Under the pieces are notes generated by a model. The model was not told the DNA's origin. It saw only the letters and a program-made list of their open reading frames with translations, and searched no databases. A stretch of 64,000 nt of DNA from a virus, in the IMG/VR virus record IMGVR_UViG_3300032235_000467. One strand, given 5' to 3'. A program made the translations under genes and the position numbers. Shown piece after piece: positions 5,038-63,111 of the stretch (position 1 is its first letter; each line of letters starts with the position of its first letter).

Positions 5038-5049
5038 AAAATAAAAAAT

Positions 5050-5226
5050 ATGAAATACAGAGTAATTATGCAGTTTATTCCTGGCCTAGACCAGATTTGG
5101 GTATCAAGATTATCCCCAGAAGATCCAGAATACGTATACGACACAGAACAAGAAGCCGTTGATAAAGCAGCTGAGTTAGAAGCAGCGGATCCAACAGGAA
5201 GAAAATATAAAACAGAAGCCGTATAG
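5050..5226 (+). CDS. Hypothetical 58-aa acidic protein (not in ORF track)
   Basis: ATG 5050 to TAG 5226 reads MKYRVIMQFIPGLDQIWVSRLSPEDPEYVYDTEQEAVDKAAELEAADPTGRKYKTEAV; A-rich leader; fills the intergenic gap. Confidence 0.7.
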   Translation: MKYRVIMQFIPGLDQIWVSRLSPEDPEYVYDTEQEAVDKAAELEAADPTGRKYKTEAV

Positions 5227-5240
5227 TAAAAATAATTACG

Positions 5241-5248
5241 TATATTTG
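5241..5248 (+). promoter_or_regulatory. Bacteroidota-type -7 promoter element (TATATTTG)
   Basis: Matches TAnnTTTG, 18 nt before the ATG at 5267; flanked by the inverted repeat TTACGTA/TACGTAA; no clear -33 box. Confidence 0.5.
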
Positions 5249-5266
5249 TACGTAAAATAAATTGTC

Positions 5267-7960: not shown

Positions 7961-7962
7961 TT

Positions 7963-8790: not shown

Positions 8791-10858
8791 TGTAACCCCA
8801 GGTCTGATCCCAATTCCTCCTAACGGTTGGGGAGCTGTAGAGAAGATTATATGGGAAACCCACAAAGCACTGTTAAAACTAGGGCATGATGCTACAATAG
8901 AGTACTTAGATGATGTAAAAGACTATGATGTAGTCCATATTCATGTAGCTAACCTTGCAAATATCGCACATGAAAGAGGCATTCCTTACTATTTTACTAT
9001 GCATGACCACCATGCGTATCTATATGGAAAAGACTCAGAAGTTTTCAAAGAAAACATGCTTGCGATCAAAAATGCCAAAAAAGCATTCGTCCCAGCAAAA
9101 TTCTTGGTCGGTTATTTTGGAAACATACCGGAATATTTCTCACATGGAGTTAACACAGACTACTTCAAACCTAGTAAATCTAGTCCTCATAAGCTACTTT
9201 GTGTCGCTAATAATGGGTTTATACACAATCAGTCTGAAGATAGAAAGGGTTTTGGTTTAGCTATAGAGGCCGCAAAGAATTTAAACCTTCCTATAACAAT
9301 AGCAGGGCCTAGCAATAACAAAAAATATTTTGAGAAGTACCCACCAGACTACGATAAGCTAACTATACTGTATGATTTGACTGAAGATGAATTGAAAAAT
9401 CTTTATAAAGATCATACTTGTTTTATTCATATGTCTATTCTAGAAGCTGGACACCCTAATTTAACCTTATTAGAGGCTATGGCTTCAGGATTACCAATTA
9501 TTGGTACATATGAAGAGGATAATTCATTAGAAGGTATGATTAAAGTAGAAAGAAATGTGGAACAGATGATAAAAGCTATAGTAGAAGTACTATGGGATCC
9601 TTTTACATACGGTATATATTCTGAAAAAGCAAGACAACAAGCCCTAGATTTATCTTGGGACAACAGAACAAAAGAACTATTAAAACATTACAAAATGACT
9701 CTTAGAGATCAAATGGTAAACAGTTATAGAAATACTAATATTTTAAATATAAAATCTAAATCACATGCTCCTACCTTCAATATGAATTTTATAGAAGGTG
9801 CTTTTTTTGAAATATTAGGAGGTCCCGATAGGGAATATACTGTTCAGTTTATAAACAAAAAAACTGGAGAAATAGCACATAAATCTGATATAAAAAAGGA
9901 TCATTGGGTAAAAGCATCCATTTCATATTTTGTAGATTGGGACATATTTGTAGATGATGGTCTGAGTTCTTATGATTTCAAGCCTGATTATACAGGTAAA
10001 AGAGTGTATGTGGCTTTAGATTCAAAAGCCCTTGGGGATACCCTAGCTTGGTTTCCATATGTAGAAGAATTTAGAAAGAAGCACAATTGCAAGATGGTAT
10101 GTTCTACCTTTTGGAATCACTTCTTTGAATCAGAGTACCCAGAAATTGAGTTTGTAAAACCTGGGGAAGTGGTACATAATCTATATGCTATGTACACTTT
10201 AGGGTGGTTCTACAATGCAGATGGGTCTTTTAATATTTTAAAGACACCGGGAGATTTTAGGGATCAGTCTCTTCAAAAGACAGCTTCAGATATACTAGGG
10301 TTGGAATTTGAGGAGATTAGACCAAAGATTAAAAAGCCTGTTGCTGGTCTAAAAGAAAAGAAAGTAACGATTGCAATGCATTCTACAGCACAATGCAAGT
10401 ATTGGAACAATAAAACTGGATGGCAAGAATTGGTTGACAATCTGTTATTAAATGGATATGAAGTAGTAATGGTATCAAAAGAAGAGGATGGATATATGGG
10501 AAATAAATACCCCAAAGGAGTTACACTATTGATGGATACCAGTCTAGAGTCAGTAATGTTTGAAATGCTAACCTCTCAAATGTTTATTGGTATAAGCAGC
10601 GGACTAAGCTGGCTAGCCTGGTCTTTAGGAGTAAATACCTGCTTAATATCCGGAATAACCAAGCCTGAGTCTGATTTTACCCCAACCGTGAGGATTTCAC
10701 CTAAAGAATCGGTATGTAGGTTCTGTTTCAATAAAGAGAAGCTAGATGCAGGGGATTGGAACTGGTGTCCTAAGCATAAAGGAACAGATAGACAGTTTGA
10801 GTGTACAAAGACTATAACTGCACAGGATGTAATAGCAGAAATATATAAAATGCTGTAA
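8777..10858 (+). CDS. GT4 glycosyltransferase fused to Aah/TibC-family autotransporter O-heptosyltransferase
   Basis: N-half GT4 (IPPNGWGAVEKIIWE, EAGHPNLTLLEAMASGLPII). C-half has ALGDTLAWFPY, STAQCKYWNN..GW, FIGISSGLSWLAW and CRFC...WCPKHKGTDRQFECTKTIT, matching the iron-binding four-Cys motif of Aah/TibC. Confidence 0.85.
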   Translation: MKIVNVTPGLIPIPPNGWGAVEKIIWETHKALLKLGHDATIEYLDDVKDYDVVHIHVANLANIAHERGIPYYFTMHDHHAYLYGKDSEVFKENMLAIKNAKKAFVPAKFLVGYFGNIPEYFSHGVNTDYFKPSKSSPHKLLCVANNGFIHNQSEDRKGFGLAIEAAKNLNLPITIAGPSNNKKYFEKYPPDYDKLTILYDLTEDELKNLYKDHTCFIHMSILEAGHPNLTLLEAMASGLPIIGTYEEDNSLEGMIKVERNVEQMIKAIVEVLWDPFTYGIYSEKARQQALDLSWDNRTKELLKHYKMTLRDQMVNSYRNTNILNIKSKSHAPTFNMNFIEGAFFEILGGPDREYTVQFINKKTGEIAHKSDIKKDHWVKASISYFVDWDIFVDDGLSSYDFKPDYTGKRVYVALDSKALGDTLAWFPYVEEFRKKHNCKMVCSTFWNHFFESEYPEIEFVKPGEVVHNLYAMYTLGWFYNADGSFNILKTPGDFRDQSLQKTASDILGLEFEEIRPKIKKPVAGLKEKKVTIAMHSTAQCKYWNNKTGWQELVDNLLLNGYEVVMVSKEEDGYMGNKYPKGVTLLMDTSLESVMFEMLTSQMFIGISSGLSWLAWSLGVNTCLISGITKPESDFTPTVRISPKESVCRFCFNKEKLDAGDWNWCPKHKGTDRQFECTKTITAQDVIAEIYKML

Positions 10859-10941: not shown

Positions 10942-13900
10942 ATGGCCCAAATACTCAAACTCCGCAGGAGCGCTATATCTGGCGCTAAACCAACTATATC
11001 CCAGATAGAATTTGGTGAAGTAGCAATGAACACAGCTGATGGAAAGCTGTTCATGAAAGTTAGCGGTAGCGGAGGAGACAGCGTAATAGAGATTGGTGCC
11101 AATTCAGGAAATGTATCAGGGTCATTATATTACGTACCGGTATTTACAGGAGTCAATTCAGTAGGCACAAGCTCAATATACCAATCAGGGTCCTTTACCT
11201 CTATAAGGAAAACCACAGTTCCTGTAAATCCAACAAATCCAGATATACTATTTGTAAACGGAGAAGGAGTCAACACTTACAATCTTATATCTGCACACAG
11301 TAATTTAAATAGCTATGTGCAGGTAAACGTACAAAACTACAGTTCAGGGGCTTTTGCCTCTTCAGATATAGTAGCTACCGCAAACGATGGTACTGAAACT
11401 ACCAAGTACATTAACATGGGTATTAATAGTAGTCAGTACACTTCTCCAGATTTTATTGGATCTGCAGGGGATGCGTATTTGTACTCTACTGGTAATGACT
11501 TATATATAGGAAATGCTATTCCCAATAAAAGAGTAATAATATTTAATGGAGGCTTTGATGCTTTTGTACATTCTAAGGTTTTCATACACGAACAAGGTAC
11601 TATAGGCATTAATACCGATACTATTGATTATGACTACCCATCTTCTTTAAGAGTATTTGCAGCAAATACTAGTTCTTTTAACTTAATATACGCACAAGCA
11701 AATGTAAATAACTACTCCCAAATTAATATAAAAAATATAAGCAGTGGGGAGGAAGCATCTTCTGATATAGTAGCTACTGCAGATGATGGAGATGAGGAAC
11801 AGGGGTATATAAATATGGGAATAAACTCTTCCCAGTTTCAAAAGCCCAATACTATAGGAAATCCTAGAGATGGGTATCTATATTCAACAGGTAATGATCT
11901 TTGTATAGGAAATGCTGTTCCAAATAAACAAGTTATTATTTTTAACGGAGGGTTTGATGTAGTCGAAAATGCAAGACTGTGGGTACATAGTCAGGGAACA
12001 GTAAGTATAAACACAGATCAGTATAATGTTAATAATCCGCCATCTTTAGTTGTATATGCTCCAAATACAACAACTAATACATTAATTGAAGGAGTTGGTC
12101 AATCTAATCAATTTTTACAATTAGCAATAGCTAATCAAAGTAGTGGTTCATTTGCCTCATCTGATATAGTTGCCTATAATGATATAGATCCCACAAATCA
12201 AGGAGTTGGATTCATTGATATGGGTATTAGCTCAACTACTTTTAATGATCCCACAAACTATCCAGGATGGGAACCTGGAGAATCATATGTTTATACGGAT
12301 GCTGCTGGAATGACGATAGGAACCACAGCAGATAGTAGTGAAATACACATATTTGCTGGGGGTATTAATCCTGTTGAAAATACTAAATTATTAATAAGAT
12401 CAAATAATCAACACGAATTAACTGGTTCTTTAAATATAAGTGGATCGCTAGTTGTTAATAATGGAATTACAGGCTCCTTATTTGGTACAGCTAGTTGGGC
12501 ATTAAATGCTATAACTGCTTCATATATAACTGCTTCTAATGTTTATGGTCCATATGGCCAAAACAGTGTAATAAGCGCATCACATGCTGTTACAGCATCA
12601 TCAGCGGATGATTTCCTTGTTAGAGGGACCTTAACCGCACAGACTATAATAGTACAAACTATAACATCATCTGTAGAGTTTGTAACGGGATCTACTCATT
12701 TTGGAACTATTATCCAAAATACACATGAATTTACTGGATCCTTATCAATATCTGGATCCTTAGTAATTAACGGCACTTCTTATACAGCAGCCACTTCTGG
12801 AACTAGCGGAACTTCTGGAACAAGCGGATCCTCAGGCACTTCTGGAACCTCTGGATCCTCTGGGTCTACAGGTACTTCCGGATCTTCAGGTAGTACTGGA
12901 ACAAGCGGTAGTGCTGGTACTAGTGGTTCATCTGGCTCATCCGGTTCCTCAGGAACTTCAGGTACTAGCGGTACATCAGGAAGTAGTGGGTCCACCGGTA
13001 CATCAGGAAGTTCAGGATCATCTGGAAGTACTGGCAGCAGTGGAACTAGTGGCACATCCGGCAGCTCAGGCTCTACTGGTACAAGTGGCACATCTGGTTC
13101 ATCTGGAAGTTCTGGATCAACAGGATCCTCCGGTACATCAGGAACATCAGGCAGCTCAGGATCCTCCGGATTTTCTGGCAGTAGTGGATCTAGTGGTTCT
13201 TCGGGATCTACTGGAACTAGTGGTACTTCAGGTACATCAGGAACCTCTGGATCTAGCGGTAGTACTGGTACAAGTGGAACTTCTGGTAGCAGTGGAACAA
13301 GTGGTACATCTGGCTCATCAGGATCCTCTGGTTCTTCAGGGTTATCTGGAACTAGTGGCTCTTCAGGAACATCTGGCTCTTCTGGATCTACAGGAACTTC
13401 AGGTACTTCTGGAAGTAGTGGATCATCTGGTTCTACAGGAAGTTCAGGTACATCAGGAAGCTCAGGTACAAGCGGATCTACAGGTACAAGCGGAACATCT
13501 GGCTCAACAGGTACAAGCGGATCTTCCGGATCATCAGGCTCTTCTGGCACTAGCGGAACTTCCGGTTCTAGCGGCTCATCCGGGTCTTCAGGAAGTACTG
13601 GTTCATCTGGTTCTAGCGGCTCTTCAGGGTCTAGCGGTTCAACGGGCACAAGTGGAACAAGTGGCACATCAGGATCTTCCGGATCATCAGGCTCTTCTGG
13701 CACAGCTGGGTCATCTGGTACAGGATTTACAACTATAAACAGCCCTGCTGTAGGAAGAGTTTTGTTATCAGACGGTAGTGTAAACGCCGCTACTGCATCT
13801 TCTGCTATAGTATATAATGGAGGAGGACTTAGCATATCAGGAAGCACAACTATTACAGGGTCTTTAACAGTATCAAATACAATAACTGCACAGACTTTAA

Positions 13901-16581
13901 TAGTACAGACAATTACTTCCTCAGTAGAATTCGTAACTGGTTCTACACACTTTGGTACAATTATTCAGAATACTCACGAGTTTACAGGTTCTTTAAGTAT
14001 TTCTGGATCTTTAACTATAAATGGAACATCCTACACTGCTGCTACTTCTGGAACATCAGGTACCAGCGGTACAGCAGGATCATCTGGTTCATCAGGTAGT
14101 ACAGGCACATCAGGAACCTCTGGTTCTAGTGGATCTTCTGGTAGTTCTGGTTCCACTGGAACAAGTGGCACATCAGGATCTAGCGGCAGCTCAGGGTCTT
14201 CTGGTAGCACAGGAACTTCCGGAACAACAGGTACTAGCGGAAGCTCAGGATCCTCTGGAAGTACTGGAACTAGTGGTAGCTCCGGTACAAGCGGAACTTC
14301 TGGGTCTAGCGGCAGCTCAGGATCAACAGGTTCGTCAGGATCTTCAGGGACTGCTGGATCTAGTGGATCCTCTGGTACCTCTGGATCAACTGGGTCTTCT
14401 GGCTCATCTGGATCAACTGGAACTAGTGGGTCTAGCGGTAGCTCTGGTTCATCAGGTTCTACAGGAACCTCTGGTTCAACAGGAACTAGTGGATCCTCTG
14501 GTAGCTCTGGATCAACTGGTACATCCGGGACTAGTGGTTCATCAGGTTCATCTGGAAGTTCCGGTTCAACAGGCACTTCAGGTACATCAGGTAGTAGTGG
14601 TAGCGCAGGATCATCTGGTTCAACAGGCACTAGCGGTACATCTGGTTCCTCTGGTACTAGTGGAAGTGCAGGTTCATCAGGATCTACTGGAACAAGTGGA
14701 ACCTCAGGTACGTCCGGGTCTTCTGGTAGCACAGGATCCAGCGGATCATCAGGAAGCTCAGGCTCCTCTGGATCTACAGGATCTTCAGGTAGTACAGGAA
14801 CCTCAGGTACATCTGGCACATCTGGCACTAGCGGATCCTCTGGTACAGGATTTACAACTATAAACAGTCCTGCACAAGGAAGAGTGTTAGTATCAGACGG
14901 ATCTGTAAATGCAGCTACAGCATCAGCAGTATTATTAGTAAATAATGGAGCGGTAGCAATATCCGGAAGTACTATTATAACAGGATCTCTTACTGTAACA
15001 AATACTATAAGCGCTCTTACTTTAGTAGTTCAAACCATATCGTCTTCAGTAGAATTTGTAACAGGTTCTACTAAGTTCGGATCTATACCATCTAACACAC
15101 ATCAATTTACAGGATCAGTAAGTATTACTGGCTCCTTGATAATAAACGGTACATCCTACACTGCAGCTACTTCCGGAACTTCTGGAACATCTGGCTCAAC
15201 CGGAACTAGTGGATCTTCAGGCACATCCGGTTCTACTGGTACCTCTGGCTCAACAGGAAGTAGTGGCTCAAGTGGTTCTAGTGGTTCAAGTGGATCTTCT
15301 GGTAGTACAGGTACTAGCGGTTCTACTGGTAGCTCAGGCTCTTCTGGTAGCACTGGTAGTAGTGGTAGTACTGGAACAAGTGGATCATCAGGGTCTAGTG
15401 GTTCTTCAGGATCATCTGGCTCTACTGGAACAAGCGGTTCTACGGGAACTAGTGGATCAAGCGGTAGTACTGGCTCTTCTGGCAGCAGTGGGTCTACTGG
15501 CACATCTGGTTCTAGCGGAACAAGTGGAAGTAGCGGTTCATCAGGAAGTACCGGATCTTCTGGCTCAACAGGAAGTAGCGGTTCTAGTGGTTCAAGCGGA
15601 TCTACAGGAACATCTGGCTCAACAGGAACTTCAGGGTCTAGCGGTTCTTCTGGATCAACCGGTACCTCAGGATCAACTGGTACAAGTGGATCTTCAGGTA
15701 GTACAGGAACTAGCGGTACCTCAGGCACATCTGGTTCATCTGGATCATCTGGATCATCAGGTACTAGCGGATCTAGTGGCAGTTCTGGTAGCACAGGAAC
15801 ATCTGGCTCAACAGGAACTAGTGGATCTTCTGGTAGTTCTGGCTCTACTGGATCATCAGGAACTAGTGGATCAAGCGGTACAGGGTTTAATACCATAAGC
15901 AATGCTGGTATTGGTAGAGTTGTAGTATCTGACGGAACTGTCAATGCGGCCACAGCATCAGCTATCTTAACTGTTAATAACGGAGCGGTAAGTATGTCTG
16001 GCAGTGCATTCATAACTGGATCACTGACAGTATCAAATACAATAACTGCACAGACTTTAATAGTACAAACCGTAAGTTCAAGTGTAGTTTTTTCCAGTGG
16101 ATCAAACGTATTTGGAAACAGCTTATCTAATACACATCAGTTTACTGGTAGTGTAACCATAACTGGTAGCTTATCTGTAAATAACAGTAGCGTAGTGCTG
16201 TCTAATCAGACAGGATCAATGTCTGTTTTAACAGCATCACATGCTTTGACAGGAAGCAATCCATTTATAATAGGCAATAGTCAGTTTAACACTACAGGAT
16301 CAGCCACAGCAAATGGAACTACAGCTGTATCTCAGATACCTACAGGATCATACACATCTGCATTCTATAGATATACGCTAGCCTCAGCCTCTAATGCTAG
16401 GGCAGGAGAAGTGATATCTGTATGGAGTGGCTCTGTGGTAAGATTTAGTGAATTCACAACTACGGATATAGGAAACACATCAACAGCTGTATTCTCAGTA
16501 ACTATAAGTTCTGGTAACGTTGTATTGAATCTATCTTCTTCTGGGGGTTGGAATGTAAAATCTATTGCAAATTTATTATAA
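10942..16581 (+). CDS. Giant virion fibre protein (1879 aa) with three Gly-Ser/Thr collagen-like blocks
   Basis: N-terminus MAQILKLRRS...GEVAMNTADGKLF resembles fibre attachment domains. Three ~130-aa repeats (SSDIVA...INMGINSS) precede the (S/T)(S/T)G blocks. Confidence 0.8.
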   Translation: MAQILKLRRSAISGAKPTISQIEFGEVAMNTADGKLFMKVSGSGGDSVIEIGANSGNVSGSLYYVPVFTGVNSVGTSSIYQSGSFTSIRKTTVPVNPTNPDILFVNGEGVNTYNLISAHSNLNSYVQVNVQNYSSGAFASSDIVATANDGTETTKYINMGINSSQYTSPDFIGSAGDAYLYSTGNDLYIGNAIPNKRVIIFNGGFDAFVHSKVFIHEQGTIGINTDTIDYDYPSSLRVFAANTSSFNLIYAQANVNNYSQINIKNISSGEEASSDIVATADDGDEEQGYINMGINSSQFQKPNTIGNPRDGYLYSTGNDLCIGNAVPNKQVIIFNGGFDVVENARLWVHSQGTVSINTDQYNVNNPPSLVVYAPNTTTNTLIEGVGQSNQFLQLAIANQSSGSFASSDIVAYNDIDPTNQGVGFIDMGISSTTFNDPTNYPGWEPGESYVYTDAAGMTIGTTADSSEIHIFAGGINPVENTKLLIRSNNQHELTGSLNISGSLVVNNGITGSLFGTASWALNAITASYITASNVYGPYGQNSVISASHAVTASSADDFLVRGTLTAQTIIVQTITSSVEFVTGSTHFGTIIQNTHEFTGSLSISGSLVINGTSYTAATSGTSGTSGTSGSSGTSGTSGSSGSTGTSGSSGSTGTSGSAGTSGSSGSSGSSGTSGTSGTSGSSGSTGTSGSSGSSGSTGSSGTSGTSGSSGSTGTSGTSGSSGSSGSTGSSGTSGTSGSSGSSGFSGSSGSSGSSGSTGTSGTSGTSGTSGSSGSTGTSGTSGSSGTSGTSGSSGSSGSSGLSGTSGSSGTSGSSGSTGTSGTSGSSGSSGSTGSSGTSGSSGTSGSTGTSGTSGSTGTSGSSGSSGSSGTSGTSGSSGSSGSSGSTGSSGSSGSSGSSGSTGTSGTSGTSGSSGSSGSSGTAGSSGTGFTTINSPAVGRVLLSDGSVNAATASSAIVYNGGGLSISGSTTITGSLTVSNTITAQTLIVQTITSSVEFVTGSTHFGTIIQNTHEFTGSLSISGSLTINGTSYTAATSGTSGTSGTAGSSGSSGSTGTSGTSGSSGSSGSSGSTGTSGTSGSSGSSGSSGSTGTSGTTGTSGSSGSSGSTGTSGSSGTSGTSGSSGSSGSTGSSGSSGTAGSSGSSGTSGSTGSSGSSGSTGTSGSSGSSGSSGSTGTSGSTGTSGSSGSSGSTGTSGTSGSSGSSGSSGSTGTSGTSGSSGSAGSSGSTGTSGTSGSSGTSGSAGSSGSTGTSGTSGTSGSSGSTGSSGSSGSSGSSGSTGSSGSTGTSGTSGTSGTSGSSGTGFTTINSPAQGRVLVSDGSVNAATASAVLLVNNGAVAISGSTIITGSLTVTNTISALTLVVQTISSSVEFVTGSTKFGSIPSNTHQFTGSVSITGSLIINGTSYTAATSGTSGTSGSTGTSGSSGTSGSTGTSGSTGSSGSSGSSGSSGSSGSTGTSGSTGSSGSSGSTGSSGSTGTSGSSGSSGSSGSSGSTGTSGSTGTSGSSGSTGSSGSSGSTGTSGSSGTSGSSGSSGSTGSSGSTGSSGSSGSSGSTGTSGSTGTSGSSGSSGSTGTSGSTGTSGSSGSTGTSGTSGTSGSSGSSGSSGTSGSSGSSGSTGTSGSTGTSGSSGSSGSTGSSGTSGSSGTGFNTISNAGIGRVVVSDGTVNAATASAILTVNNGAVSMSGSAFITGSLTVSNTITAQTLIVQTVSSSVVFSSGSNVFGNSLSNTHQFTGSVTITGSLSVNNSSVVLSNQTGSMSVLTASHALTGSNPFIIGNSQFNTTGSATANGTTAVSQIPTGSYTSAFYRYTLASASNARAGEVISVWSGSVVRFSEFTTTDIGNTSTAVFSVTISSGNVVLNLSSSGGWNVKSIANLL
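12793..13719 (+). repeat. (S/T)-(S/T)-Gly triplet block 1, 103 triplets
   Basis: 927 nt; Gly at every third residue in the translation. Confidence 0.9.
14044..14844 (+). repeat. (S/T)-(S/T)-Gly triplet block 2, 89 triplets
   Basis: 801 nt; period-3 Gly. Confidence 0.9.
15169..15879 (+). repeat. (S/T)-(S/T)-Gly triplet block 3, 79 triplets
   Basis: 711 nt; period-3 Gly. Confidence 0.9.
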
Positions 16582-17387
16582 TGCCAATAACTTTTTTAAA
16601 TAGAAATAACTCAGGAAATCTATCACTTATCAATAGAAGTAACAGCGGTAGACTAAGTATGACAGTAGGAACTTCTATTGTAACAGCAGGATTAGTATTA
16701 AATTTAGATGCTGGTAATCCATCTTCTTATCCTGGTAGTGGAACTACTTGGACAGATTTAACCGTAAATGGGTTCAATGCTTCTATGACCGGTAGCGTTA
16801 GTTATAATAATACACCTCCTCAATATTTTGACTATGCTAATCTTCCAAATTATTTTGTTGGTAATAATAATCTTACTTCTGTAATAAGCACTGCTATAAC
16901 AATTACATCTTGGATAAATGTACGTAATATAGCATCAAGAAGTGTTGTGTTTGATAAATACCAAACACCAACTCTCCCTGCTGGGTATGTTCTTGAAGTA
17001 GGAACAGTCTCCTCCCTTTGGACTAATACAGTAAGATTTTTTGCAGTAGGTTCTACTGGAGATGGTTGGGACCCTAGAGGAGTAAGTAATGCTATACAAG
17101 AGAATGTCCCATGTATGGTATCAGTAACATTAGATCGTACTGCACAACAATCTTCATTGTATGTAAATGGTTCAAGTATATCATATACACAAGGTGGAGG
17201 CCCTATTACTAATTTAGCTTCTAATTGGGCTACAGGAACTAATGTATATACTTTGGGGTCATATCGACCTGACTCTGCTATAGACTCAAACATGTATCAG
17301 TATAATCTATTAATATATAATAGAGCTTTATCCGCATCTGAAATCCTACAAAACTATAATGCACAAAAATCAAAATTTGGGTTATAA
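16581..17387 (+). CDS. LamG/concanavalin A-like lectin-fold virion protein
   Basis: Start at TAATG overlap (16581). GLVLNLDAGNPSSYPGSGTTWTDL...IYNRALSASEILQNYNA is a typical phage LamG-like domain. Confidence 0.8.
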   Translation: MPITFLNRNNSGNLSLINRSNSGRLSMTVGTSIVTAGLVLNLDAGNPSSYPGSGTTWTDLTVNGFNASMTGSVSYNNTPPQYFDYANLPNYFVGNNNLTSVISTAITITSWINVRNIASRSVVFDKYQTPTLPAGYVLEVGTVSSLWTNTVRFFAVGSTGDGWDPRGVSNAIQENVPCMVSVTLDRTAQQSSLYVNGSSISYTQGGGPITNLASNWATGTNVYTLGSYRPDSAIDSNMYQYNLLIYNRALSASEILQNYNAQKSKFGL

Positions 17388-17408
17388 AAAGTATTACTCT
17401 AGATCCTT

Positions 17409-17417
17409 ATATTTATA
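17409..17417 (+). promoter_or_regulatory. Putative phage late promoter ATATTTATA
   Basis: Intergenic copy of the recurrent motif, 33 nt before ATG 17451. Confidence 0.6.
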
Positions 17418-17450
17418 AATGTCTGTTGGAAAGTGAAAACAGTATAAAAT

Positions 17451-20207
17451 ATGCCAAACGAGTTCAAAGTTAAGAATGGCCTGATTGTAGACCAAGGAGG
17501 AGCCAATATAACAGGTTCTTCTGCTATATCAGGATCTTTAGACATTGCTGGCAGCGTAACTGCGACTAACTTTACCGGATCTTTATTTGGTACAGCAAGT
17601 TGGGCTGCAAATTTTAAGGAAACAGACCCAGTATTTTCATCCAAGTCAGCTAGTTTAGCCACTACAGGATCTAATTCATTTTTTGGAGATCAATATATAA
17701 CAGGATCTTTAAACCTGTCATCTAGTGGAATCCACTATATAAGTGGACTGGTAACAGCTTCAAGTACTATTCATGTAAACGTAACACAGCCTGTCCTAGC
17801 TTTAGATACAAGAGGTAGAATACTGTACTCTAACTTCTTCTCAACTACTGCAAGTTTACCGGATCCTAACTTGTACCATGGTATGTTTACCCATGTACAT
17901 AATGAAGGATCAGCATATTATTCACACGGGTCTAATGGTTGGGTAAGATTATGGGACAGATTTAACAGTCCTAATTTAATTAGCGGATCACAAGTACCAG
18001 CTAATATAGTAGGACAAGCAATTGCTCCTCTAAGCGTAAGCGCATCTTCTTTTGTAAGTGCTAGTGAATTTTTTGGTAGCGGTAGCGGAATAGTAGGAGT
18101 CATATCATCTTCATATTCAGTAACAGCATCCAATGGACTGTTATTTAATAGCACATCCTCAGAAAGATTTGCAACCACAGGATCTAACACATTTATAGGA
18201 AATCAAATAGTAACTGGTAGTTTATACACTAGCGGGTCTAATAGATTAGTAGGGCCTACAGAATTAACAGGTTCTTTAGGAATATCTGGTAGCCAGATTA
18301 TAAAAGGGTATGTGCAATTCATGCCTGTTACTACAAACATAGACACATCAATAACTGCATCTTATATCTATGTATCAGGTTCTACTAATGATTTGTATTT
18401 CTCTCAAAACGGTGATGGGTATAATAACGTAACTCGTTTACGTTGGTTAGAAGGCAACTTATATACAGGATTATTACATGGAGGTTTAATTACAGCTGCT
18501 ACAGGATCTACTATATATCAAGTTAGTAGCGGTAGTGGTATAATTGTTAATATAAATGCAAGCTTAACTGCCAATCCATACCCTACTATTAAATATGTAA
18601 ACTGGGGTAATTTAACAGCTAGTATTGCACCACTTACTGCATCATATCAACAAGCATTTGTATCTATTGATTCGAATGGTAGTATTTACCAACAAGGCAT
18701 ACCATACGCTTCCGAACAATTTGATACATCAATTAACATAGGAGTTGTATTATTTCAAAACGGATCTACAATTAATGGTGTTAAAACACAACCATCCACA
18801 GCATATGGTTTTGAACAACAACAAAATATATTTAATAGGGCATTTGGACCTTTAAAATTATCAGGGTATACTTTAGCACCTAGTGGTTCTTCAACACGCA
18901 GTTTAATAGTAGCAGGTGGTACAGCTTACTCACCTGGTTCTAACTATTCTGTAGATCCAAATAATCCATCCTACACTACTGATAGTGGAACTAATGTATC
19001 TAAAATATTCAGATATAGACAATCAGGTTCTACTTGGGTATATGATACAAATGCAGGTGCAGGTTATACAACAATTGATCCAACACAATATTCAAACAAT
19101 GGTGTATTAACAGCAGTACCAGGAGGAGGATCAAATAGAGAATTTTCTATTCAAAGAGTATTTTATTTCCCTAATAGTGTAGCTAAAGCTATAGTCGTTT
19201 ATTATGGTAATGCTACATACGCAAGTCTAACAGATGCAACATCAAATATTTCTTTTGAACCGTTTGTTGAAGCACCAAATACTGCAGCAAACGCAATTTA
19301 TTTAGGGGCAATTATTGTAAGAAATAACGCTGATTTTACAGTTACTGACTCATATGCTATTCAGACAGCAGGTCTATTTAGGTCAGTAGGAGGATCAGGA
19401 GGCGGAGGATCGGTAGTAACTCAAACTTTATCAGGACTTTCTGATGTAAATATATCAGGACCAACAAATGGACAACCATTAGTTTATGATTCGACTGCTG
19501 CTAAATGGGAAAATAAATCAACACTAACAGCAACATTAATAGGTAATGCTAGCACAGCTACAACTGCATCTTACGCATTAATAGCTAAAAGTATAGAAGG
19601 CATTATAACTAGCGCTTCTTATGCATTAACGGCTTCTTATGTACTTAATGCTATAAGTGCATCATATTCTGCTACTGCATCATATGTACTAAACTCTATA
19701 AGTTCTTCATACGCTGCTACTGCATCTTTTGTAGCCACTGCATCAAACGCAATATCTTCTTCATATGCAGTAACAGCAAGTTATGTAGCAACCCTAAATA
19801 AAAAAGTAAGAACTACTATTCCAATAACAGCAGTACAAGGACAGACTACCCTTATAACAAACATACCTGCATTAGTGGATGAAGTAGGAACTGAATTAAG
19901 AATTAGGGAAAATCTATTAAATGCCGTATCTTGCAGTATGTCTGCTAGGGTTGAACAAGCTACTGGTGGTGCTATTGGTCATTTAAAGATTCAATATTCA
20001 ACAGATGAATCTACTTGGAATGATCTTAATGCAAATAAAGTAGATCTAGGAACAGTCGGGACTCAATTAACAACAGAAGAAGCAATTCCATCTGGAGCAA
20101 AGACAACCGGTACTTATATAAGATTAGTAACAATAAGTGGAGATGGTACGGCAGCTAGTAATGCCAGATTTGGAAATGTAACTTTAAATATAATTTACGA
20201 TATATAA
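17451..20207 (+). CDS. Virion fibre/structural protein (918 aa)
   Basis: MPNEFKVKNGL start; Ser/Thr-rich TGS/SGS strands; TASYA repeats; LSGLSDVNISGPTNGQPLVYD motif typical of phage fibres. Confidence 0.7.
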   Translation: MPNEFKVKNGLIVDQGGANITGSSAISGSLDIAGSVTATNFTGSLFGTASWAANFKETDPVFSSKSASLATTGSNSFFGDQYITGSLNLSSSGIHYISGLVTASSTIHVNVTQPVLALDTRGRILYSNFFSTTASLPDPNLYHGMFTHVHNEGSAYYSHGSNGWVRLWDRFNSPNLISGSQVPANIVGQAIAPLSVSASSFVSASEFFGSGSGIVGVISSSYSVTASNGLLFNSTSSERFATTGSNTFIGNQIVTGSLYTSGSNRLVGPTELTGSLGISGSQIIKGYVQFMPVTTNIDTSITASYIYVSGSTNDLYFSQNGDGYNNVTRLRWLEGNLYTGLLHGGLITAATGSTIYQVSSGSGIIVNINASLTANPYPTIKYVNWGNLTASIAPLTASYQQAFVSIDSNGSIYQQGIPYASEQFDTSINIGVVLFQNGSTINGVKTQPSTAYGFEQQQNIFNRAFGPLKLSGYTLAPSGSSTRSLIVAGGTAYSPGSNYSVDPNNPSYTTDSGTNVSKIFRYRQSGSTWVYDTNAGAGYTTIDPTQYSNNGVLTAVPGGGSNREFSIQRVFYFPNSVAKAIVVYYGNATYASLTDATSNISFEPFVEAPNTAANAIYLGAIIVRNNADFTVTDSYAIQTAGLFRSVGGSGGGGSVVTQTLSGLSDVNISGPTNGQPLVYDSTAAKWENKSTLTATLIGNASTATTASYALIAKSIEGIITSASYALTASYVLNAISASYSATASYVLNSISSSYAATASFVATASNAISSSYAVTASYVATLNKKVRTTIPITAVQGQTTLITNIPALVDEVGTELRIRENLLNAVSCSMSARVEQATGGAIGHLKIQYSTDESTWNDLNANKVDLGTVGTQLTTEEAIPSGAKTTGTYIRLVTISGDGTAASNARFGNVTLNIIYDI

Positions 20208-23200
20208 TGCCAAAGTATACTATATTTTCAAATATTATAAGTGGTAGCAGTGCAGCTATAACATCTATTACTGGATCGTTATTAGGTAATGCATCTACTG
20301 CAACTACTGCATCTCATGCACTGACAGCTTCTTCTGCGGATAATTTTACTGTAAGAGGAACACTGACAGCACAAACTATAGTAGCTCAGACCATTACATC
20401 GTCTACCGATTTTGTTACTGGATCTACTAGATTTGGTAGCGTCGCTTCAAATACACATCAATTTACCGGCTCAGTAAGTATAACAGGATCTCTTACTATA
20501 AACGGAACATCTTATACTGCTGCTACATCCGGAACAAGCGGTACTTCAGGAACCGCAGGATCGTCCGGTAGCTCAGGATCTACAGGTACATCTGGTACTG
20601 CAGGTTCTAGCGGGTCTTCCGGCAGCACAGGTAGTAGCGGAACATCAGGCACTGCCGGTACAACGGGTACTAGCGGTACCTCTGGTTCATCTGGATCTAG
20701 CGGATCTTCAGGATCTACAGGAACATCTGGCTCAACTGGTACCTCAGGTACATCAGGAAGTTCTGGATCCTCCGGATCAACTGGCTCATCAGGAACTTCA
20801 GGTACTTCTGGAAGCAGTGGATCTTCTGGTTCTACTGGTACTTCTGGATCAACTGGTTCTTCCGGCTCGGCGGGAAGTAGCGGTACTTCTGGATCAACTG
20901 GAACATCTGGTTCTACTGGAACTAGCGGAAGTTCAGGATCCTCTGGATCTACAGGCACCAGTGGTACTTCAGGTTCTACAGGAACTAGCGGATCATCAGG
21001 TTCTTCGGGTACCAGCGGTACTTCTGGATCTACTGGTACATCAGGAAGCACAGGAACATCTGGCTCAACAGGAACATCAGGATCTAGTGGGTCATCTGGT
21101 TCTTCAGGGTCGTCTGGATCATCTGGTACAGGTTTCACCACAATAAATAACCCTGCTATAGGAAGGGTATTGCTTGCTGATAACTCAACAAATGCAGCAA
21201 CAGCTTCCGCAGTATTAACTATAAACAATGGAAACGTAGTTGTTTCTGGTAGCACTGTTATAACAGGCTCCTTAACTGTAACTAATACTATTAATGCGCT
21301 AACATTAGTAGTACAAACTATATCTTCCTCAGTAGAATTTGTTACAGGGTCTACTAAATTTGGTAGTATAATATCAAATACACATCAATTTACAGGTTCT
21401 GTAAGTATATCAGGATCTTTATCTTTAAATGGAACATCTTTTGCTGCAGCCACTTCAGGAACTTCAGGAACTAGTGGTATAAATGGTACTAGTGGCTCTT
21501 CTGGAAGCTCTGGTTCTAGTGGAACATCTGGCTCAACTGGTACATCAGGTACTTCTGGTAGCAGCGGTTCTACAGGAACGTCAGGATCTAGTGGCACTTC
21601 AGGAGTTAATGGTACATCTGGTTCAAGTGGAACTAGTGGGTCTACCGGCTCTTCAGGTTCATCTGGTAGTACAGGTACTAGCGGATCAACAGGAACTTCT
21701 GGTTCTACAGGTACATCTGGCTCAACTGGAACTAGCGGTAGCTCCGGATCTTCAGGTTCTACTGGAACTTCTGGAACCTCAGGATCTACTGGAACTAGTG
21801 GGTCTTCTGGTAGCACAGGAACAAGTGGCTCTAGTGGTACTTCTGGAGCAAACGGTTCTTCAGGAACTTCAGGAACTAGCGGTACATCTGGCTCTAGTGG
21901 TACGAGTGGTGTAAATGGTAGTTCTGGTACATCTGGTAGCACAGGCACTTCAGGATCTTCTGGATCATCAGGATCATCTGGATCTACCGGTACATCAGGA
22001 AGCTCTGGCTCAACTGGATCATCTGGTAGTAGTGGATCTACGGGATCCAGTGGTACTGCAGGTACTTCTGGTACTAGCGGACAAACAGGATCTTCTGGTT
22101 CAAGTGGTTCTTCCGGCACTAGCGGGACCTCAGGTACATCAGGAACTTCTGGAACTTCTGGTAGTTCAGGGTCTACAGGTACATCAGGCTCTAGTGGTTC
22201 AACAGGATCATCTGGAAGTAGCGGTAGTACAGGTACATCGGGCAGCAGTGGTACTTCAGGTACTAGTGGAACATCCGGTTCATCTGGTACAGGATTCAAT
22301 ACAATAAATAATCCTGCTATAGGAAGAGTCCTCATAGCAGATGCTTCAACTAATTCAGCTACAGCTTCAGCAATATTAACCGTTAACAACGGAGCTGTTA
22401 GCATGTCAGGCAGTACATTTATTACTGGATCATTAACAGTAACTAATACTATTAATGCTTTAACATTAGTTGTACAGACTATATCATCTTCAATAGAATT
22501 TGTAACTGGATCTACTAGATTTGGTAGTACAATTTCTAACAATCATGAGTTTACCGGTAGTGTTAGAATTAGCGGATCTTTATTTATAAACGGTACATCA
22601 TACACTGCCGCTACTTCTGGAACTAGTGGTACTACAGGAACATCAGGAAGTTCTGGATCCTCAGGTAGTTCTGGTTCAACTGGAACTAGTGGCACAGCAG
22701 GAACGGCTGGTACTACAGGAACATCAGGAACAGCAGGATCTTCTGGAAGTGCAGGCTCATCTGGCTCTACAGGTACCAGCGGATCTACAGGTACTTCAGG
22801 ATCTTCTGGTTCTTCAGGAACTACTGGAACATCAGGTAGTACAGGTACTAGTGGTTCTAGTGGTACTTCTGGAGCAAACGGTTCTTCAGGAACTTCTGGA
22901 ACTTCAGGAAGCTCTGGCTCAACTGGTTCTTCTGGTTCTTCTGGTTCTTCTGGTTCTTCTGGTTCTACAGGTACTTCTGGTACTTCAGGTACCGCAGGAA
23001 GCTCTGGATCTTCTGGCTCATCAGGAAATACAGGCTCTTCTGGAAGTAGTGGTTCTACAGGTACTTCGGGGTCTAGTGGTTCAACAGGAACTAGCGGCAC
23101 AGCAGGAACCTCAGGATCTAGTGGATCCTCTGGATCAACTGGAACATCTGGTTCAACTGGTACTTCAGGCACCTCTGGATCAACTGGTTCTTCTGGTACA

Positions 23201-24907
23201 TCTGGTTCTACTGGTACATCAGGTACTAGTGGTTCATCTGGAACAGGATTTAATACTATCAATAGCCCTGCTATCGGTAGAGTCCTTATAGCAGATGCCT
23301 CAACTAACGCTGCAACTGCTTCAGTTATACTAACTGTCAATAATGGCGCAGTTAGTGTATCTGGAAGTACAATTATCACTGGATCTTTAACAGTGACTAA
23401 TACGATAAATGCTTTAACATTAGTAGTACAAACTATAAGCTCTTCTGTAGAGTTTGTAACAGGGTCAACTAGGTTTGGCAGCACTATATCCAATAACCAT
23501 GAATTTACAGGCAGCTTAAGAATTAGCGGATCTTTATTCATAAACGGAACATCCTATACTGCTGCCACATCAGGAACTAGTGGAACATCAGGCAGCTCCG
23601 GAACTTCAGGATCTACTGGTTCATCTGGTAGTTCAGGAACTAGCGGAACTTCTGGTTCTACCGGTACTAGCGGTTCAACAGGAACTTCTGGAACATCAGG
23701 AACTACAGGATCTTCTGGTTCTACAGGTTCATCTGGATCTTCTGGATCTACAGGGTCAAGTGGATCCTCAGGTAGTACAGGAACTTCTGGAACTAGTGGC
23801 ACTTCAGGAACTACAGGTTCGTCTGGATCTTCCGGTAGCACAGGTTCTAGTGGATCTACAGGCACAAGTGGATCTACTGGAACATCAGGTAGTACAGGTA
23901 GTTCAGGCTCTACTGGCTCATCAGGGTCTACCGGAACATCAGGAACTTCTGGTAGTACTGGATCCTCTGGATCAACTGGTACTTCCGGTAGCACAGGTAC
24001 TAGCGGTTCAACAGGAACTTCAGGCTCGTCTGGAACAGGATTCAATACAATAAACAGTCCTGCTATAGGAAGAGTTTTAATAGCAGATGCCACAAATAAT
24101 GCAGCTACTGCATCGGCAATACTTACTGTAAATAATGGAGCCGTTAGTGTCTCAGGTAGTACAATTATAACAGGATCTTTAAGTATATCTGGTAGTAGTG
24201 GGACTACTTTATTTTCTTCAAACGTAGACACGTTAATATTAACAGGATCTGCTATAGTAACAGGATCTGTTATTGTAACTGGATCAGTATCTATAAACAA
24301 TCTAACTCTTAACTCAGGATTAACTAGATTTGTAGTAGTTGATCCAACAACAGGACAGTTATTTTATAATACATCAGGAGGTGGAGCAGGGTCCGCTGGT
24401 TCATCAGGATCCTCAGGTTCTAGCGGATCAAGCGGTTCTTCTGGATCTTCTGGTTCTACAGGGTCAAGTGGATCCTCAGGTACAACAGGATCTTCTGGAT
24501 CTTCAGGAACATCAGGATTATCTAGTTTATCTCTAACAGTAGCTGATGGAGGTGTTATACAAGGCACAGGCATTACCTATTTAGAATTTGCTACTAATAT
24601 ATCGGCAACTGTAACCAATACAACAGCGTCTATTAGTGCAACTGGTGGAGGCGGTGGTGGAGGACTAGCTACAAAAGCTGGATCAATAGCCAATAGTTCT
24701 TTCACTGGTAACCCTAAGAAGTCCACAGTAACCTTTGCAGCAGCATTTACAGATGCAAACTATGCAGTGGCGGTAACTGGAGAAGATGCTAGATCATGGA
24801 CTATAGAAAGTAAAGCAGCAGGAAGCTTTATAATAAACGCAAATAGTAATGCCGGATTAGCAGGAAGTACTAATTGGGTGGCAGTTAAACATGGAGAAAC
24901 AGCCTAA
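20207..24907 (+). CDS. Giant virion fibre protein (1566 aa) with five Gly-Ser/Thr collagen-like blocks
   Basis: Shares the triplet blocks and 108-aa spacer with 10942..16581; small C-terminal beta domain (VTFAAAFTDANYAVAVT). Confidence 0.8.
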   Translation: MPKYTIFSNIISGSSAAITSITGSLLGNASTATTASHALTASSADNFTVRGTLTAQTIVAQTITSSTDFVTGSTRFGSVASNTHQFTGSVSITGSLTINGTSYTAATSGTSGTSGTAGSSGSSGSTGTSGTAGSSGSSGSTGSSGTSGTAGTTGTSGTSGSSGSSGSSGSTGTSGSTGTSGTSGSSGSSGSTGSSGTSGTSGSSGSSGSTGTSGSTGSSGSAGSSGTSGSTGTSGSTGTSGSSGSSGSTGTSGTSGSTGTSGSSGSSGTSGTSGSTGTSGSTGTSGSTGTSGSSGSSGSSGSSGSSGTGFTTINNPAIGRVLLADNSTNAATASAVLTINNGNVVVSGSTVITGSLTVTNTINALTLVVQTISSSVEFVTGSTKFGSIISNTHQFTGSVSISGSLSLNGTSFAAATSGTSGTSGINGTSGSSGSSGSSGTSGSTGTSGTSGSSGSTGTSGSSGTSGVNGTSGSSGTSGSTGSSGSSGSTGTSGSTGTSGSTGTSGSTGTSGSSGSSGSTGTSGTSGSTGTSGSSGSTGTSGSSGTSGANGSSGTSGTSGTSGSSGTSGVNGSSGTSGSTGTSGSSGSSGSSGSTGTSGSSGSTGSSGSSGSTGSSGTAGTSGTSGQTGSSGSSGSSGTSGTSGTSGTSGTSGSSGSTGTSGSSGSTGSSGSSGSTGTSGSSGTSGTSGTSGSSGTGFNTINNPAIGRVLIADASTNSATASAILTVNNGAVSMSGSTFITGSLTVTNTINALTLVVQTISSSIEFVTGSTRFGSTISNNHEFTGSVRISGSLFINGTSYTAATSGTSGTTGTSGSSGSSGSSGSTGTSGTAGTAGTTGTSGTAGSSGSAGSSGSTGTSGSTGTSGSSGSSGTTGTSGSTGTSGSSGTSGANGSSGTSGTSGSSGSTGSSGSSGSSGSSGSTGTSGTSGTAGSSGSSGSSGNTGSSGSSGSTGTSGSSGSTGTSGTAGTSGSSGSSGSTGTSGSTGTSGTSGSTGSSGTSGSTGTSGTSGSSGTGFNTINSPAIGRVLIADASTNAATASVILTVNNGAVSVSGSTIITGSLTVTNTINALTLVVQTISSSVEFVTGSTRFGSTISNNHEFTGSLRISGSLFINGTSYTAATSGTSGTSGSSGTSGSTGSSGSSGTSGTSGSTGTSGSTGTSGTSGTTGSSGSTGSSGSSGSTGSSGSSGSTGTSGTSGTSGTTGSSGSSGSTGSSGSTGTSGSTGTSGSTGSSGSTGSSGSTGTSGTSGSTGSSGSTGTSGSTGTSGSTGTSGSSGTGFNTINSPAIGRVLIADATNNAATASAILTVNNGAVSVSGSTIITGSLSISGSSGTTLFSSNVDTLILTGSAIVTGSVIVTGSVSINNLTLNSGLTRFVVVDPTTGQLFYNTSGGGAGSAGSSGSSGSSGSSGSSGSSGSTGSSGSSGTTGSSGSSGTSGLSSLSLTVADGGVIQGTGITYLEFATNISATVTNTTASISATGGGGGGGLATKAGSIANSSFTGNPKKSTVTFAAAFTDANYAVAVTGEDARSWTIESKAAGSFIINANSNAGLAGSTNWVAVKHGETA
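20525..24517 (+). repeat. Five (S/T)-(S/T)-Gly blocks: 20525-21127 (67), 21452-22288 (93), 22613-23242 (70), 23567-24034 (52), 24392-24517 (14 triplets)
   Basis: Each block length is divisible by 9 nt; period-3 Gly; first four blocks separated by 324-nt spacers. Confidence 0.9.
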
Positions 24908-24909: not shown

Positions 24910-25878
24910 ATGGCACTAATATTAAATAACAGTTTTTTTAGAGTGAGTAATGGATCTTTTTCTTTTTTTAAACCTGAAAGTGCTCCTCTATCTCTAGGAC
25001 AAATATATAGAGTAGTAAGTATAGGTGGAAGTGGTGGTTCTTTTTCATATACAAAAATAGATGGATCTACGGCCTCAACTCCAACTCTATCAACAGGACA
25101 AATAGCATATATTCTAGCAGTTTCTGGATCAATATCCGACAACTATAATAATCCCAACACACCCGGTTTTTTGGCCGTTACTAACTTATTAATAACCTCT
25201 AGTAATCTATCGGAACCATTAACTTTTACAGAAGAATTAATTACGACTACGGGAGCTGGAACTTGGACAAAACCTGCTGGTGTAACAGAAGTTATTGTAG
25301 AATGTTGGGGAGGTGGTGGTGCCGGTGGTGGTGCAACTTCAAACCCAGCAGGAGGTGCAGGAGGTGCAGCGGGTCAATACTCTAGAAAATACATACAATA
25401 TTCTTCTCCATCCGTGGGAGTATCATATTCAGTTGCGGCTACCAGAGCCGGTACTCAAAATGCTGGAGCTGTAGGAAATGATACTACTTGGAATACAAAT
25501 GTAGTTGTAGCAAAGGGAGGAGCAGGAGGAGGAGGAAATGGTACTACTGGAGCTGATGTTGCAGGAGGGGTAGGATCAACAACTGGAGGTATTGGAGATG
25601 TAGTATATGCTGGTCTTGATGGAAACCAAAGCCAAGTTTCTTTTCAAAACGCAGGAGGCGGAGGAAGCGGCAGGGGGTCCACAGGAACAGGAATTGCAGG
25701 TGGTGCTGCAGGCCAAGAGTATAGTGGAACTGGTGGTACAAGTGGTGCGTTTTTATTATCTAATGGCGGTGCTGGAACAAACTATGGTGCAGGAGGTGGA
25801 GGTGGATATACTAACGTAGCTACAAACGCAAATGGCGGTGCTGGTGCGCAAGGTCTAATCAGATTAATATATAGATAA
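24910..25878 (+). CDS. Glycine-rich virion protein
   Basis: GTWTKPAGVTEVIVECWGGGGAGG...GGAGAQGLIRLIY is a typical phage glycine-rich domain. Confidence 0.75.
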   Translation: MALILNNSFFRVSNGSFSFFKPESAPLSLGQIYRVVSIGGSGGSFSYTKIDGSTASTPTLSTGQIAYILAVSGSISDNYNNPNTPGFLAVTNLLITSSNLSEPLTFTEELITTTGAGTWTKPAGVTEVIVECWGGGGAGGGATSNPAGGAGGAAGQYSRKYIQYSSPSVGVSYSVAATRAGTQNAGAVGNDTTWNTNVVVAKGGAGGGGNGTTGADVAGGVGSTTGGIGDVVYAGLDGNQSQVSFQNAGGGGSGRGSTGTGIAGGAAGQEYSGTGGTSGAFLLSNGGAGTNYGAGGGGGYTNVATNANGGAGAQGLIRLIYR

Positions 25879-63110: not shown

Positions 63111-63111
63111 T

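Follow-up and report, generated by a model that had tools for sequence, protein, structure and literature searches.

Proline-free Gly-Ser/Thr tracts in two predicted glycosylated, collagen-like fibres of a myovirus-like phage

Two large proteins encoded in IMG/VR virus record IMGVR_UViG_3300032235_000467, which we call fibre A (10942..16581, + strand, 1879 amino acids) and fibre B (20207..24907, + strand, 1566 amino acids), contain long collagen-like Gly-X-Y tracts in which X and Y are almost always Ser or Thr. The window—the whole stretch of 64,000 nucleotides that was analysed—is a one-strand stretch of a large myovirus-like genome with sheath, tube, DnaB, RNR, PolA and GroEL genes, and a cassette of three predicted glycosylation genes lies upstream of fibre A. 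The explanation we favour, and hold with moderate confidence, is that the tracts are the stalks of two long, modular, O-glycosylated, trimeric and beaded collagen-like fibres of the myovirus virion. Three chains would associate via spacers and terminal domains, which would provide register and a high local concentration. In the host cytoplasm, a phage enzyme resembling TibC and Aah would prime Ser hydroxyls of the tracts with a sugar, which a fused glycosyltransferase (GT) domain of the GT4 type, a GT1, a further GT-like open reading frame (ORF) and two FkbM methyltransferases would extend and methylate into a short methylated glycan. The resulting dense O-glycan shell would replace hydroxyproline or charge pairs and stabilise a collagen-type triple helix, much as galactosyl-Thr does in Riftia collagen and in Gly-Pro-Thr peptides. 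The outcome would be sugar-coated beaded fibres of ~230 nm (fibre A) and ~250 nm (fibre B), the former ending in a trimeric adaptor similar to T4 gp9 that probably carries the lectin-fold protein encoded next. The features of the tracts, the family to which the enzyme belongs, its intact catalytic residues and its conserved linkage to such tracts are direct observations, whereas the role of the tracts as acceptor, the identity of the sugar and the triple-helical fold are inferred. A preliminary description of the window had proposed that the tracts either need glycosylation to fold as triple helices or form polyproline-II (PPII)/polyglycine-II (PGII) bundles like that of springtail antifreeze protein. 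Glycosylation now gains strong indirect support from the upstream cassette and its recurrent linkage to such tracts, and the triple helix is favoured by the strict register, the asymmetry of X and Y and a tip fold resembling that of trimeric proteins, while the antifreeze-like bundle fits poorly.

The tracts themselves are uniform in composition. A strict scan for G-X-Y runs in the translations of 10942-16581 and 20207-24907 found eight uninterrupted blocks, all on the + strand and totalling 561 triplets. Fibre A has three, of 102 (12799-13716), 88 (14050-14841) and 78 triplets (15175-15876), and fibre B has five, of 66 (20531-21124), 92 (21458-22285), 69 (22619-23239), 51 (23573-24031) and 15 triplets (24389-24523). 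The blocks first described (103, 89 and 79 triplets in one protein; 67, 93, 70, 52 and 14 in the other) are therefore real, our recount, in which the closing GTG triplet is left uncounted, differing by one triplet each. The composition reported for them was also borne out, with 96-99% Ser/Thr over the 561 triplets. Ser and Thr account for 99% of X and Y in fibre A and 96% in fibre B, the remainder being A, N, V, I, F, L and Q. Pro, Asp, Glu, Lys and Arg are absent from every triplet of the eight blocks, and Cys from the tracts of both fibres. Both proteins match the Pfam Collagen family PF01391 (E 5e-109 and 9e-120 for fibres A and B, with scores of 356 and 391 bits where the cutoff is 27.2). 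They have Gly at every third position and exceed the threshold of the hidden Markov model, but lack the Pro/hydroxyproline or Lys-Gly-Asp/Glu stabilisers. All synonymous codons for Gly, Ser and Thr are used, in proportions that match those of six housekeeping and structural genes of the window (sheath, polymerase and GroEL among them), and Tandem Repeats Finder detects in the tract DNA only degenerate periods of 9-81 nucleotides with 60-85% matches. Therefore, the period-three Gly is kept by selection at the protein level and is due neither to chance nor to recent slippage; slippage or an assembly artefact is disfavoured because either should leave near-identical DNA units. The ORFs that overlie the blocks on the minus strand (12780-13847 and others) are artefacts that arise when the GGN-WSN-WSN repeat is read in antisense.

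Within this simple alphabet, X and Y are not equivalent. The most common triplets are GSS (221), GTS (193) and GST (111), while GTT is depleted (8 versus 45 expected, p 6e-15), so that at least one Ser is kept in 534 of the 561 triplets. Thr at Y followed, across the next Gly, by Thr at X is enriched (84 versus 46 expected), and a GST triplet is never succeeded by another (0 versus 25 expected). X is ~60% Ser and ~40% Thr, and Y is ~80% Ser; in distant relatives Y is mainly Ser too, although X there is mostly Thr. The register is also protected outside the window, since 276 of 281 short interruptions in 31 distinct related ORFs (6,195 triplets) are multiples of three residues and only five break it. 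These constraints, as read from the sequences, suggest a period-three structure with non-equivalent X and Y, whereas a disordered linker would need none of them. At 0.286 nm per residue, with the spacers uncounted, triple helices would measure 230 nm in fibre A (268 triplets) and 251 nm in fibre B (293 triplets), which is close to the ~240-260 nm of filament per protein initially estimated.

The cassette upstream of fibre A is the main reason for invoking glycosylation. Its first gene (5267..7960, +) encodes an 897-amino acid enzyme with a GT1/GT4-type glycosyltransferase domain (Pfam Glycos_transf_1, 7e-17) and two FkbM-family methyltransferase domains (Methyltransf_21, 1.6e-25, in two stretches; TIGR01444 fkbM_fam, 5.6e-43). 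The second is a 275-amino acid ORF (7963..8790, +), for which searches of Pfam, PHROG and NCBIfam gave no match. Its nearest structures in the ESM Atlas are phage proteins that join the same fold to a GT9, FkbM/GT1 or methyltransferase domain, a further neighbour being a Bacteroidota cluster of which 30% is Glyco_transf_8. Judging from its position and these structural neighbours, it may be a further glycosyltransferase-like domain, which we offer as a lead only. The third gene (8777..10858, +), directly upstream of fibre A, encodes a 693-amino acid fusion. Residues ~1-340 are GT4-type, and residues 350-691 form a protein O-glycosyltransferase domain of the TibC/Aah type, or BAHT family. This domain scores 270.3 bits with TIGR04414 hepto_Aah_TibC, the NCBIfam equivalog named "autotransporter strand-loop-strand O-heptosyltransferase", against a cutoff of 200, covering positions 25-373 of the 374 in the profile, and matches the TibC structure (PDB 4RAP) with an E value of 1.8e-49.

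Comparison with TibC, residue by residue, highlights both similarities and one important difference. In TibC, Asp110 serves as catalytic base, the beta-phosphate is bound by Thr226 and Lys230 and O4 of the heptose by Trp305, Cys339, Cys342, Cys358 and Cys370 bind iron in a finger that, together with a hydrophobic beta-hairpin thumb, is required for the dodecamer, and Arg286 contacts N1 of the adenine and thereby confers specificity for ADP, an R286A change having abolished or largely diminished activity (PMC4358343). The equivalents of Asp110, Thr226, Lys230 and Trp305 are kept in the window enzyme and in all its close phage homologues, in the motifs LGD, ST.Q.K and SGLSW, and the four Cys of the iron finger and Phe368 are conserved in the window enzyme. 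Its thumb beta-hairpin is three residues shorter, with Tyr-Met at the tip versus Phe-Val in TibC. The main difference is that the equivalent of Arg286 is Val (in the motif LESV) in the BAHT domain (window positions 9824-10855), which thus lacks the determinant of ADP-sugar specificity. All 23 viral homologues in the clade of the window enzyme carry V, T or A at this position, where Arg is found in 28 viral homologues that are more distant and in an enzyme resembling Aah. Loss of the contact to adenine hints at a nucleotide-sugar donor other than ADP-heptose. The window also lacks an autotransporter partner of the AIDA-I/TibA type, the enzyme being adjoined by a collagen-like fibre instead. By sequence, then, the enzyme appears to be BAHT-like, without the adenine-reading Arg and without an autotransporter. 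By analogy with the family, a cytoplasmic, nucleotide-sugar-dependent, Ser-specific and processive glycosyltransferase is of a type that a phage could use on a fibre assembled in the cytoplasm. TibC heptosylates Ser and not Thr (PMC4358343), a preference that we set beside the retention of Ser in 534 of the 561 triplets and the Ser-rich Y position.

The pairing of this enzyme with Ser/Thr tracts recurs in other viruses and in bacteria. We gathered 72 IMG/VR loci starting from the spacer that separates the blocks and 53 viral loci starting from the enzyme, 51 of which were scored for at least 20 Pro-free Ser/Thr Gly-X-Y triplets within 10 kb of it. Pro-free, Ser/Thr-rich blocks of 20-123 triplets occur in ~27 of the 72 spacer-started loci. 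Homologues of all three cassette genes, at 61-83% identity, adjoin such fibres in three of them (L001, L003 and L016), and parts of the cassette are syntenic with Ser/Thr fibres in three more (L021, L025 and L036). Homologues of the first cassette gene, at 68-76% identity, hold the same position in L001, L003, L016, L025, L036 and L054, and the position of the second is conserved in L001, L003, L016, L025 and L054. Tracts lie near the enzyme in 13 of the 51 scored enzyme-started loci, a count that, like those for the cellular genomes below, comes from loci chosen by enzyme homology. All 13 are among the 23 loci whose enzyme lacks the Arg, against none of the 28 loci with Arg (Fisher p 2e-6, uncorrected for relatedness). 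The longest uninterrupted runs near relatives of the enzyme have no spacer at all. They are Gly-(Thr/Ser)-(Ser/Asn) runs, on the minus strand with BAHT-like relatives alongside, of 857 triplets (L081/L082, 11765-21022), 726 triplets (L086, 13670-21034) and 340 triplets (L100, 14905-20328), the first of which would span up to ~735 nm as a triple helix. In bacterial or archaeal genomes, a Pro-free Ser/Thr Gly-X-Y block accompanies the homologue in 26 of 36 loci, lying within 2 kb in 22 cases and within 1 kb in 15. For example, in the isolate Methylobacter luteus IMV-B-3098 (L129, 8869-9729), a secreted protein with GT[SA] tracts is encoded 827 nucleotides upstream of the enzyme. In seven cellular loci (L129, L130, L135, L138-L140 and L144), a small protein with a signal-peptide-like N terminus and 12-37 Pro-free GT[SA] triplets is encoded 40-830 nucleotides from the BAHT-like gene. 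The Ser/Thr tract is the one feature common to all these neighbours of the enzyme, and this is our main argument for regarding the tract, and not the spacer, as the acceptor. Separately, we considered loss of Arg286 as a marker of a collagen-type acceptor. It works among the viral contigs but not in bacteria, since Arg-bearing homologues from Arenicellales also lie beside Ser/Thr tracts, and we retain it only as a hint about the donor.

The architecture of the two fibres is modular. In both, the Gly-X-Y blocks alternate with a conserved, beta-rich spacer of ~110 amino acids, copies of which separate and follow the blocks of fibre A (13717-14049, 14842-15174 and 15877-~16200, +). Conservation is sharp at the junctions, with ...GSSGTGF(N/T)TIN on the C-terminal side of a block and ...NGTSYTAATSGTSGTSG where the next one starts. 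The spacer module is widespread, with 3,570 cluster representatives at E<1e-3, mostly in 2-10 copies per protein. A sequence search against solved structures returned no relative of the spacer (best E 0.18), and PHROGs gave no annotated match for the spacer, the N-terminal domain of fibre A or the tips, only three weak matches to unannotated families (E 1e-4 to 2e-4). The spacer also alternates with other charge-poor Gly-X-Y flavours (Gln/Pro/Asn, Gln/Ala/Ile and Thr/Pro/Ala/Gln) in L008, L031, L050 and L018, with blocks of up to 119 triplets. Fibre A begins with a 615-amino acid domain that has more than 836 metagenomic homologues. Long Ser/Thr tracts are absent from the top 120 of these, so the domain family as such is not characterised by them. 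Residues ~1-50 match the N termini of other phage fibres, including the "collagen like minor tail" protein of S-CBS2 at 53% identity. The number of blocks varies between close relatives. In the closest related contig (L073, 11130-15533), the fibre A orthologue has one 67-triplet block, and a 400-amino acid non-collagen insert replaces the other two. Close relatives thus differ through gain and loss of block-spacer cassettes, fibre length apparently varying with them.

The end of fibre A and the genes that follow it point to how the fibres might be put together. The tip domain of fibre A (16177-16578, +) was modelled with a predicted local distance difference test score (pLDDT) of 82, exceeding 90 in the last ~95 residues. 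In fold it comes closest to the C-terminal domain of the trimeric protein T4 gp9 (E 3.8e-5, template modelling score 0.56) and next to the particle-binding adaptor domains that Acinetobacter phages have in their tailspikes, and not to C1q/TNF. This fold therefore supports a trimeric fibre A with a terminal docking socket. On the strength of this model, the tip may be a socket for the lectin-fold protein encoded by the next gene rather than a receptor-binding tip. That protein (16548..17387, +, 279 amino acids) has a concanavalin A-like/LamG_3 fold (Laminin_G_3, 7.6e-08; phrog_8510 virion structural protein, 3.7e-12), and its homologues adjoin spacer-bearing fibres in many loci. It is followed by a 918-amino acid fibre-associated protein (17451..20207, +) with a weak F5/8 type C (discoidin) match, homologues of which, at 39-85% identity, occur in most spacer-containing loci. 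These two proteins are candidate receptor-binding parts. Fibre B opens directly on a half-spacer and lacks its own N-terminal anchor domain, and base 20207 is shared by its start and the stop of the 918-amino acid gene. The 918-amino acid protein may thus be the proximal part of the second fibre, or may be translationally coupled with fibre B. The C-terminal domain of fibre B is small and follows a Gly7 linker, with homologues at 66-71% identity in L002, L055, L057 and L070.

Several points weigh against glycosylated triple-helical fibres. First, 10 of the 23 Arg-less viral loci have no Ser/Thr block within 10 kb of the enzyme. Second, the change of the adenine-reading Arg286 to Val makes the donor, or even the activity, of the window enzyme uncertain. 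Third, the known acceptors of BAHT enzymes are beta-helical repeats, not collagen-like chains, and the Ser/Thr-rich beta spacers could be the real acceptor instead of the tracts. Fourth, in the host-guest data of Persikov et al. (2000), Ser reportedly has a low propensity for the triple helix at X as well as at Y, and dense glycans at both positions might clash sterically. Finally, an AlphaFold2 monomer model of the spacer with its flanking tracts has low confidence (pLDDT 51, with ~30 in the tracts).

The last two points bear on the rival that survives best, although we consider it doubtful. In it, the tracts would be O-glycosylated in the manner of a mucin-like bottle-brush, staying single, extended PPII-like or disordered chains that act as flexible tethers shielded from proteases, and only the spacers and terminal domains would trimerise. 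The evidence for glycosylation applies equally to such tethers, the monomer model shows no ordered structure in the tracts, and the low triple-helix propensity of Ser is in keeping with it. However, a disordered or single-chain linker needs no Gly at exactly every third position, yet the register is kept over all 561 triplets here, and with five breaks in ~6,200 triplets of relatives, despite full synonymous divergence. The asymmetry of X and Y and the enrichment of Thr-Gly-Thr also point to position-specific packing.

A second rival, which we find improbable, leaves the tracts unmodified and has the cassette act on something else, such as the Ser/Thr-rich spacers, the N-terminal domains or a glycan of the host surface. 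Characterised BAHTs do modify beta-helical strand-loop-strand repeats (PMC4358343), and the spacers are Ser/Thr-rich beta structure. There is, moreover, a second glycosyltransferase cluster in the window, far from the fibres (59862-64000). However, across phages and bacteria the sole feature common to the neighbours of the enzyme is the Pro-free Ser/Thr Gly-X-Y tract. The tracts of 340-857 triplets in L081, L086 and L100 have no spacer that could serve as acceptor, and the neighbour in Methylobacter, which is small and secreted, has short GT[SA] tracts. The worst fit is a bundle of the snow-flea antifreeze type—a small disulfide-stabilised protein with short PGII segments joined by turns and Gly well above one third—in which the chain would fold back into a stack of short left-handed helices, and which we regard as very improbable: the tripeptide Gly repeat, small side chains, absence of Pro and an apparently aquatic phage (judged only from relatives on metagenomic contigs and a Microcystis phage) would suit it, but Gly is exactly 33% here versus roughly 45% in that family, 50-102 triplets here and up to 857 in relatives run without a turn-forming break, the tracts have no Cys in proteins of 1566 and 1879 amino acids, and the blocks are flanked by conserved junction motifs and domains of trimeric-fibre type.

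Returning to O-glycosylated collagen-like fibres, each component of this explanation has a known counterpart. The closest for the enzyme are TibC-TibA and Aah-AIDA-I of E. coli (TIGR04414; 4RAP/4RB4), in which many Ser of a repetitive protein encoded by the adjacent gene are O-glycosylated in the cytoplasm, the characterised BAHTs acting on Ser in beta-helical strand-loop-strand repeats (PMC4358343). Unlike these, the phage enzyme is fused to a GT4 domain and accompanied by further glycosyltransferase and methyltransferase domains, and its neighbour is a collagen-like fibre rather than an autotransporter beta-helix. For the glycosylated tract, the closest counterpart is BclA of the Bacillus anthracis/cereus exosporium, whose collagen-like Gly-X-Thr repeats carry O-linked oligosaccharides that include methylated sugars (PMC8968730). 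BclA differs in that its repeats are mostly Gly-Pro-Thr and hence Pro-rich, whereas the fibres here have no Pro, in having a C1q/TNF-like C-terminal nucleating domain versus the gp9-like tip of fibre A, in relying on glycosyltransferases outside the BAHT family, and in having blocks of tens of triplets versus several hundred triplets per chain here. BclA forms hair-like surface filaments whose length follows repeat number.

Sugars can also stand in for hydroxyproline, glycosylated Thr being a documented triple-helix stabiliser (PMC11923368). As described there, the cuticle collagen of Riftia pachyptila is stabilised by galactosyl-Thr instead of hydroxyproline, and Ac-(Gly-Pro-Thr)10 stays a random coil unless galactosylated. 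These molecules, of animal or synthetic origin, have Pro at X and the sugar on Thr at Y, as in Ac-(Gly-Pro-Thr(beta-Gal))10, whereas the tracts here have no Pro at all and Ser dominates at Y. Among phages and prophages, collagen-like tail fibres have been described in E. coli O157 prophages (PMC3368898) and Synechococcus phage S-CBS2, with Gly-X-Y tracts inside trimeric fibres and trimerisation domains flanking them. Unlike ours, the tracts of those fibres are short, with abundant Pro and charged residues. In bacterial collagens, Pro occupies 19-31% of X positions (PMC8968730), while KGD and KGE are a signature of viral collagens, KGD alone accounting for 13% of viral triplets (PMC11923368); neither triplet occurs in the tracts here. 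Both sources also stress Thr at Y, and they agree with the preliminary description that collagens of prokaryotes and phages normally rely on Pro and charge pairs. Thus, while collagen-like phage fibres, glycosylated collagen and BAHT glycosylation are individually known, their combination is apparently unpublished, our literature searches having turned up no account of collagen-like phage fibres with Pro-free Ser/Thr tracts or of BAHT enzymes from phages.

The nearest cultured relative, Microcystis phage Mel-JY01 (PP395634; L126), has a tail sheath 39% identical to that of the window phage and encodes a BAHT homologue (48% identity) fused to FkbM (coding sequence 4750-8430). This gene is adjoined by a spacer-like "structural protein" and by a Ser/Thr-rich Gly-X-Y ORF (2..3052, +) that is open at its 5' end and at least 1016 amino acids long. 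The tracts in Mel-JY01 are less extreme, with periodic Arg/Asp (GTR...GTD) and Gly-Pro-Pro caps. The end of this ORF coincides with an annotated coding sequence (2519-3052), GenBank otherwise listing minus-strand "hypothetical proteins" at 1-651 and 739-2298, with PVPE repeats, which are probably antisense miscalls. A literature search by the name Mel-JY01 found no paper.

In the window, the fibre genes have a tail fibre gene encoding an S74 chaperone on one side and the genes for sheath (29841-32087) and tube (32121-32609) on the other, a setting that supports a place in the virion. The tail fibre gene is a 5'-open ORF (1-3261) whose C terminus is that of a tail fibre with an S74 intramolecular chaperone domain. 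Fibre B is followed by a gene (24910..25878, +) for a 322-amino acid glycine-rich-domain protein that resembles tail-fibre-assembly proteins (Gly_rich_2, 1.4e-09; phrog_863 tail fiber assembly, 2.7e-15). The second glycosyltransferase cluster, which runs off the window, comprises two GT1-type genes (59862-61301 and 61311-62594) and a GT2 gene from 63560. A tail of ~110 nm had been deduced from a 745-amino acid tape measure. That ORF (36208-38445) is indeed in the place expected for one, downstream of the tube and chaperone-like ORFs, but has no match in Pfam or PHROG, and the tail length stays an inference.

Beyond the fibres themselves, we tentatively put forward a broader and less probable proposal. 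A stable collagen triple helix is held to need imino acids, charge pairs or, rarely, glycosylated Thr beside Pro. After hydroxyproline and charge pairs, the tracts may represent a third chemical route to the triple helix: a helix of Gly, Ser and Thr only, O-glycosylated on Ser in each triplet by a donor-switched TibC-like enzyme, as a module found in phages and some bacteria that would yield glyco-fibres from ~250 nm here to ~700 nm in relatives that have 857 triplets in one run. If true, a Gly-Ser/Thr-only helix of hundreds of triplets would test the rule of collagen stability, and a simple recombinant, glycan-tunable collagen scaffold could follow. It would also be a second type of virion glycosylation, after the capsid and tail glycans of mycobacteriophages. 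To our knowledge, the BAHT family has so far been associated only with the maturation of bacterial adhesins; here, it would act on fibres two to three times as long as the tail. Such fibres could widen the capture radius of the phage in dilute water, or bind or penetrate host mucilage. In ordinary bacteria such as Methylobacter, the pairing of enzyme and tract predicts a new class of BAHT acceptors, and Mel-JY01, which is in culture and carries a milder version of the module, makes the idea directly testable.

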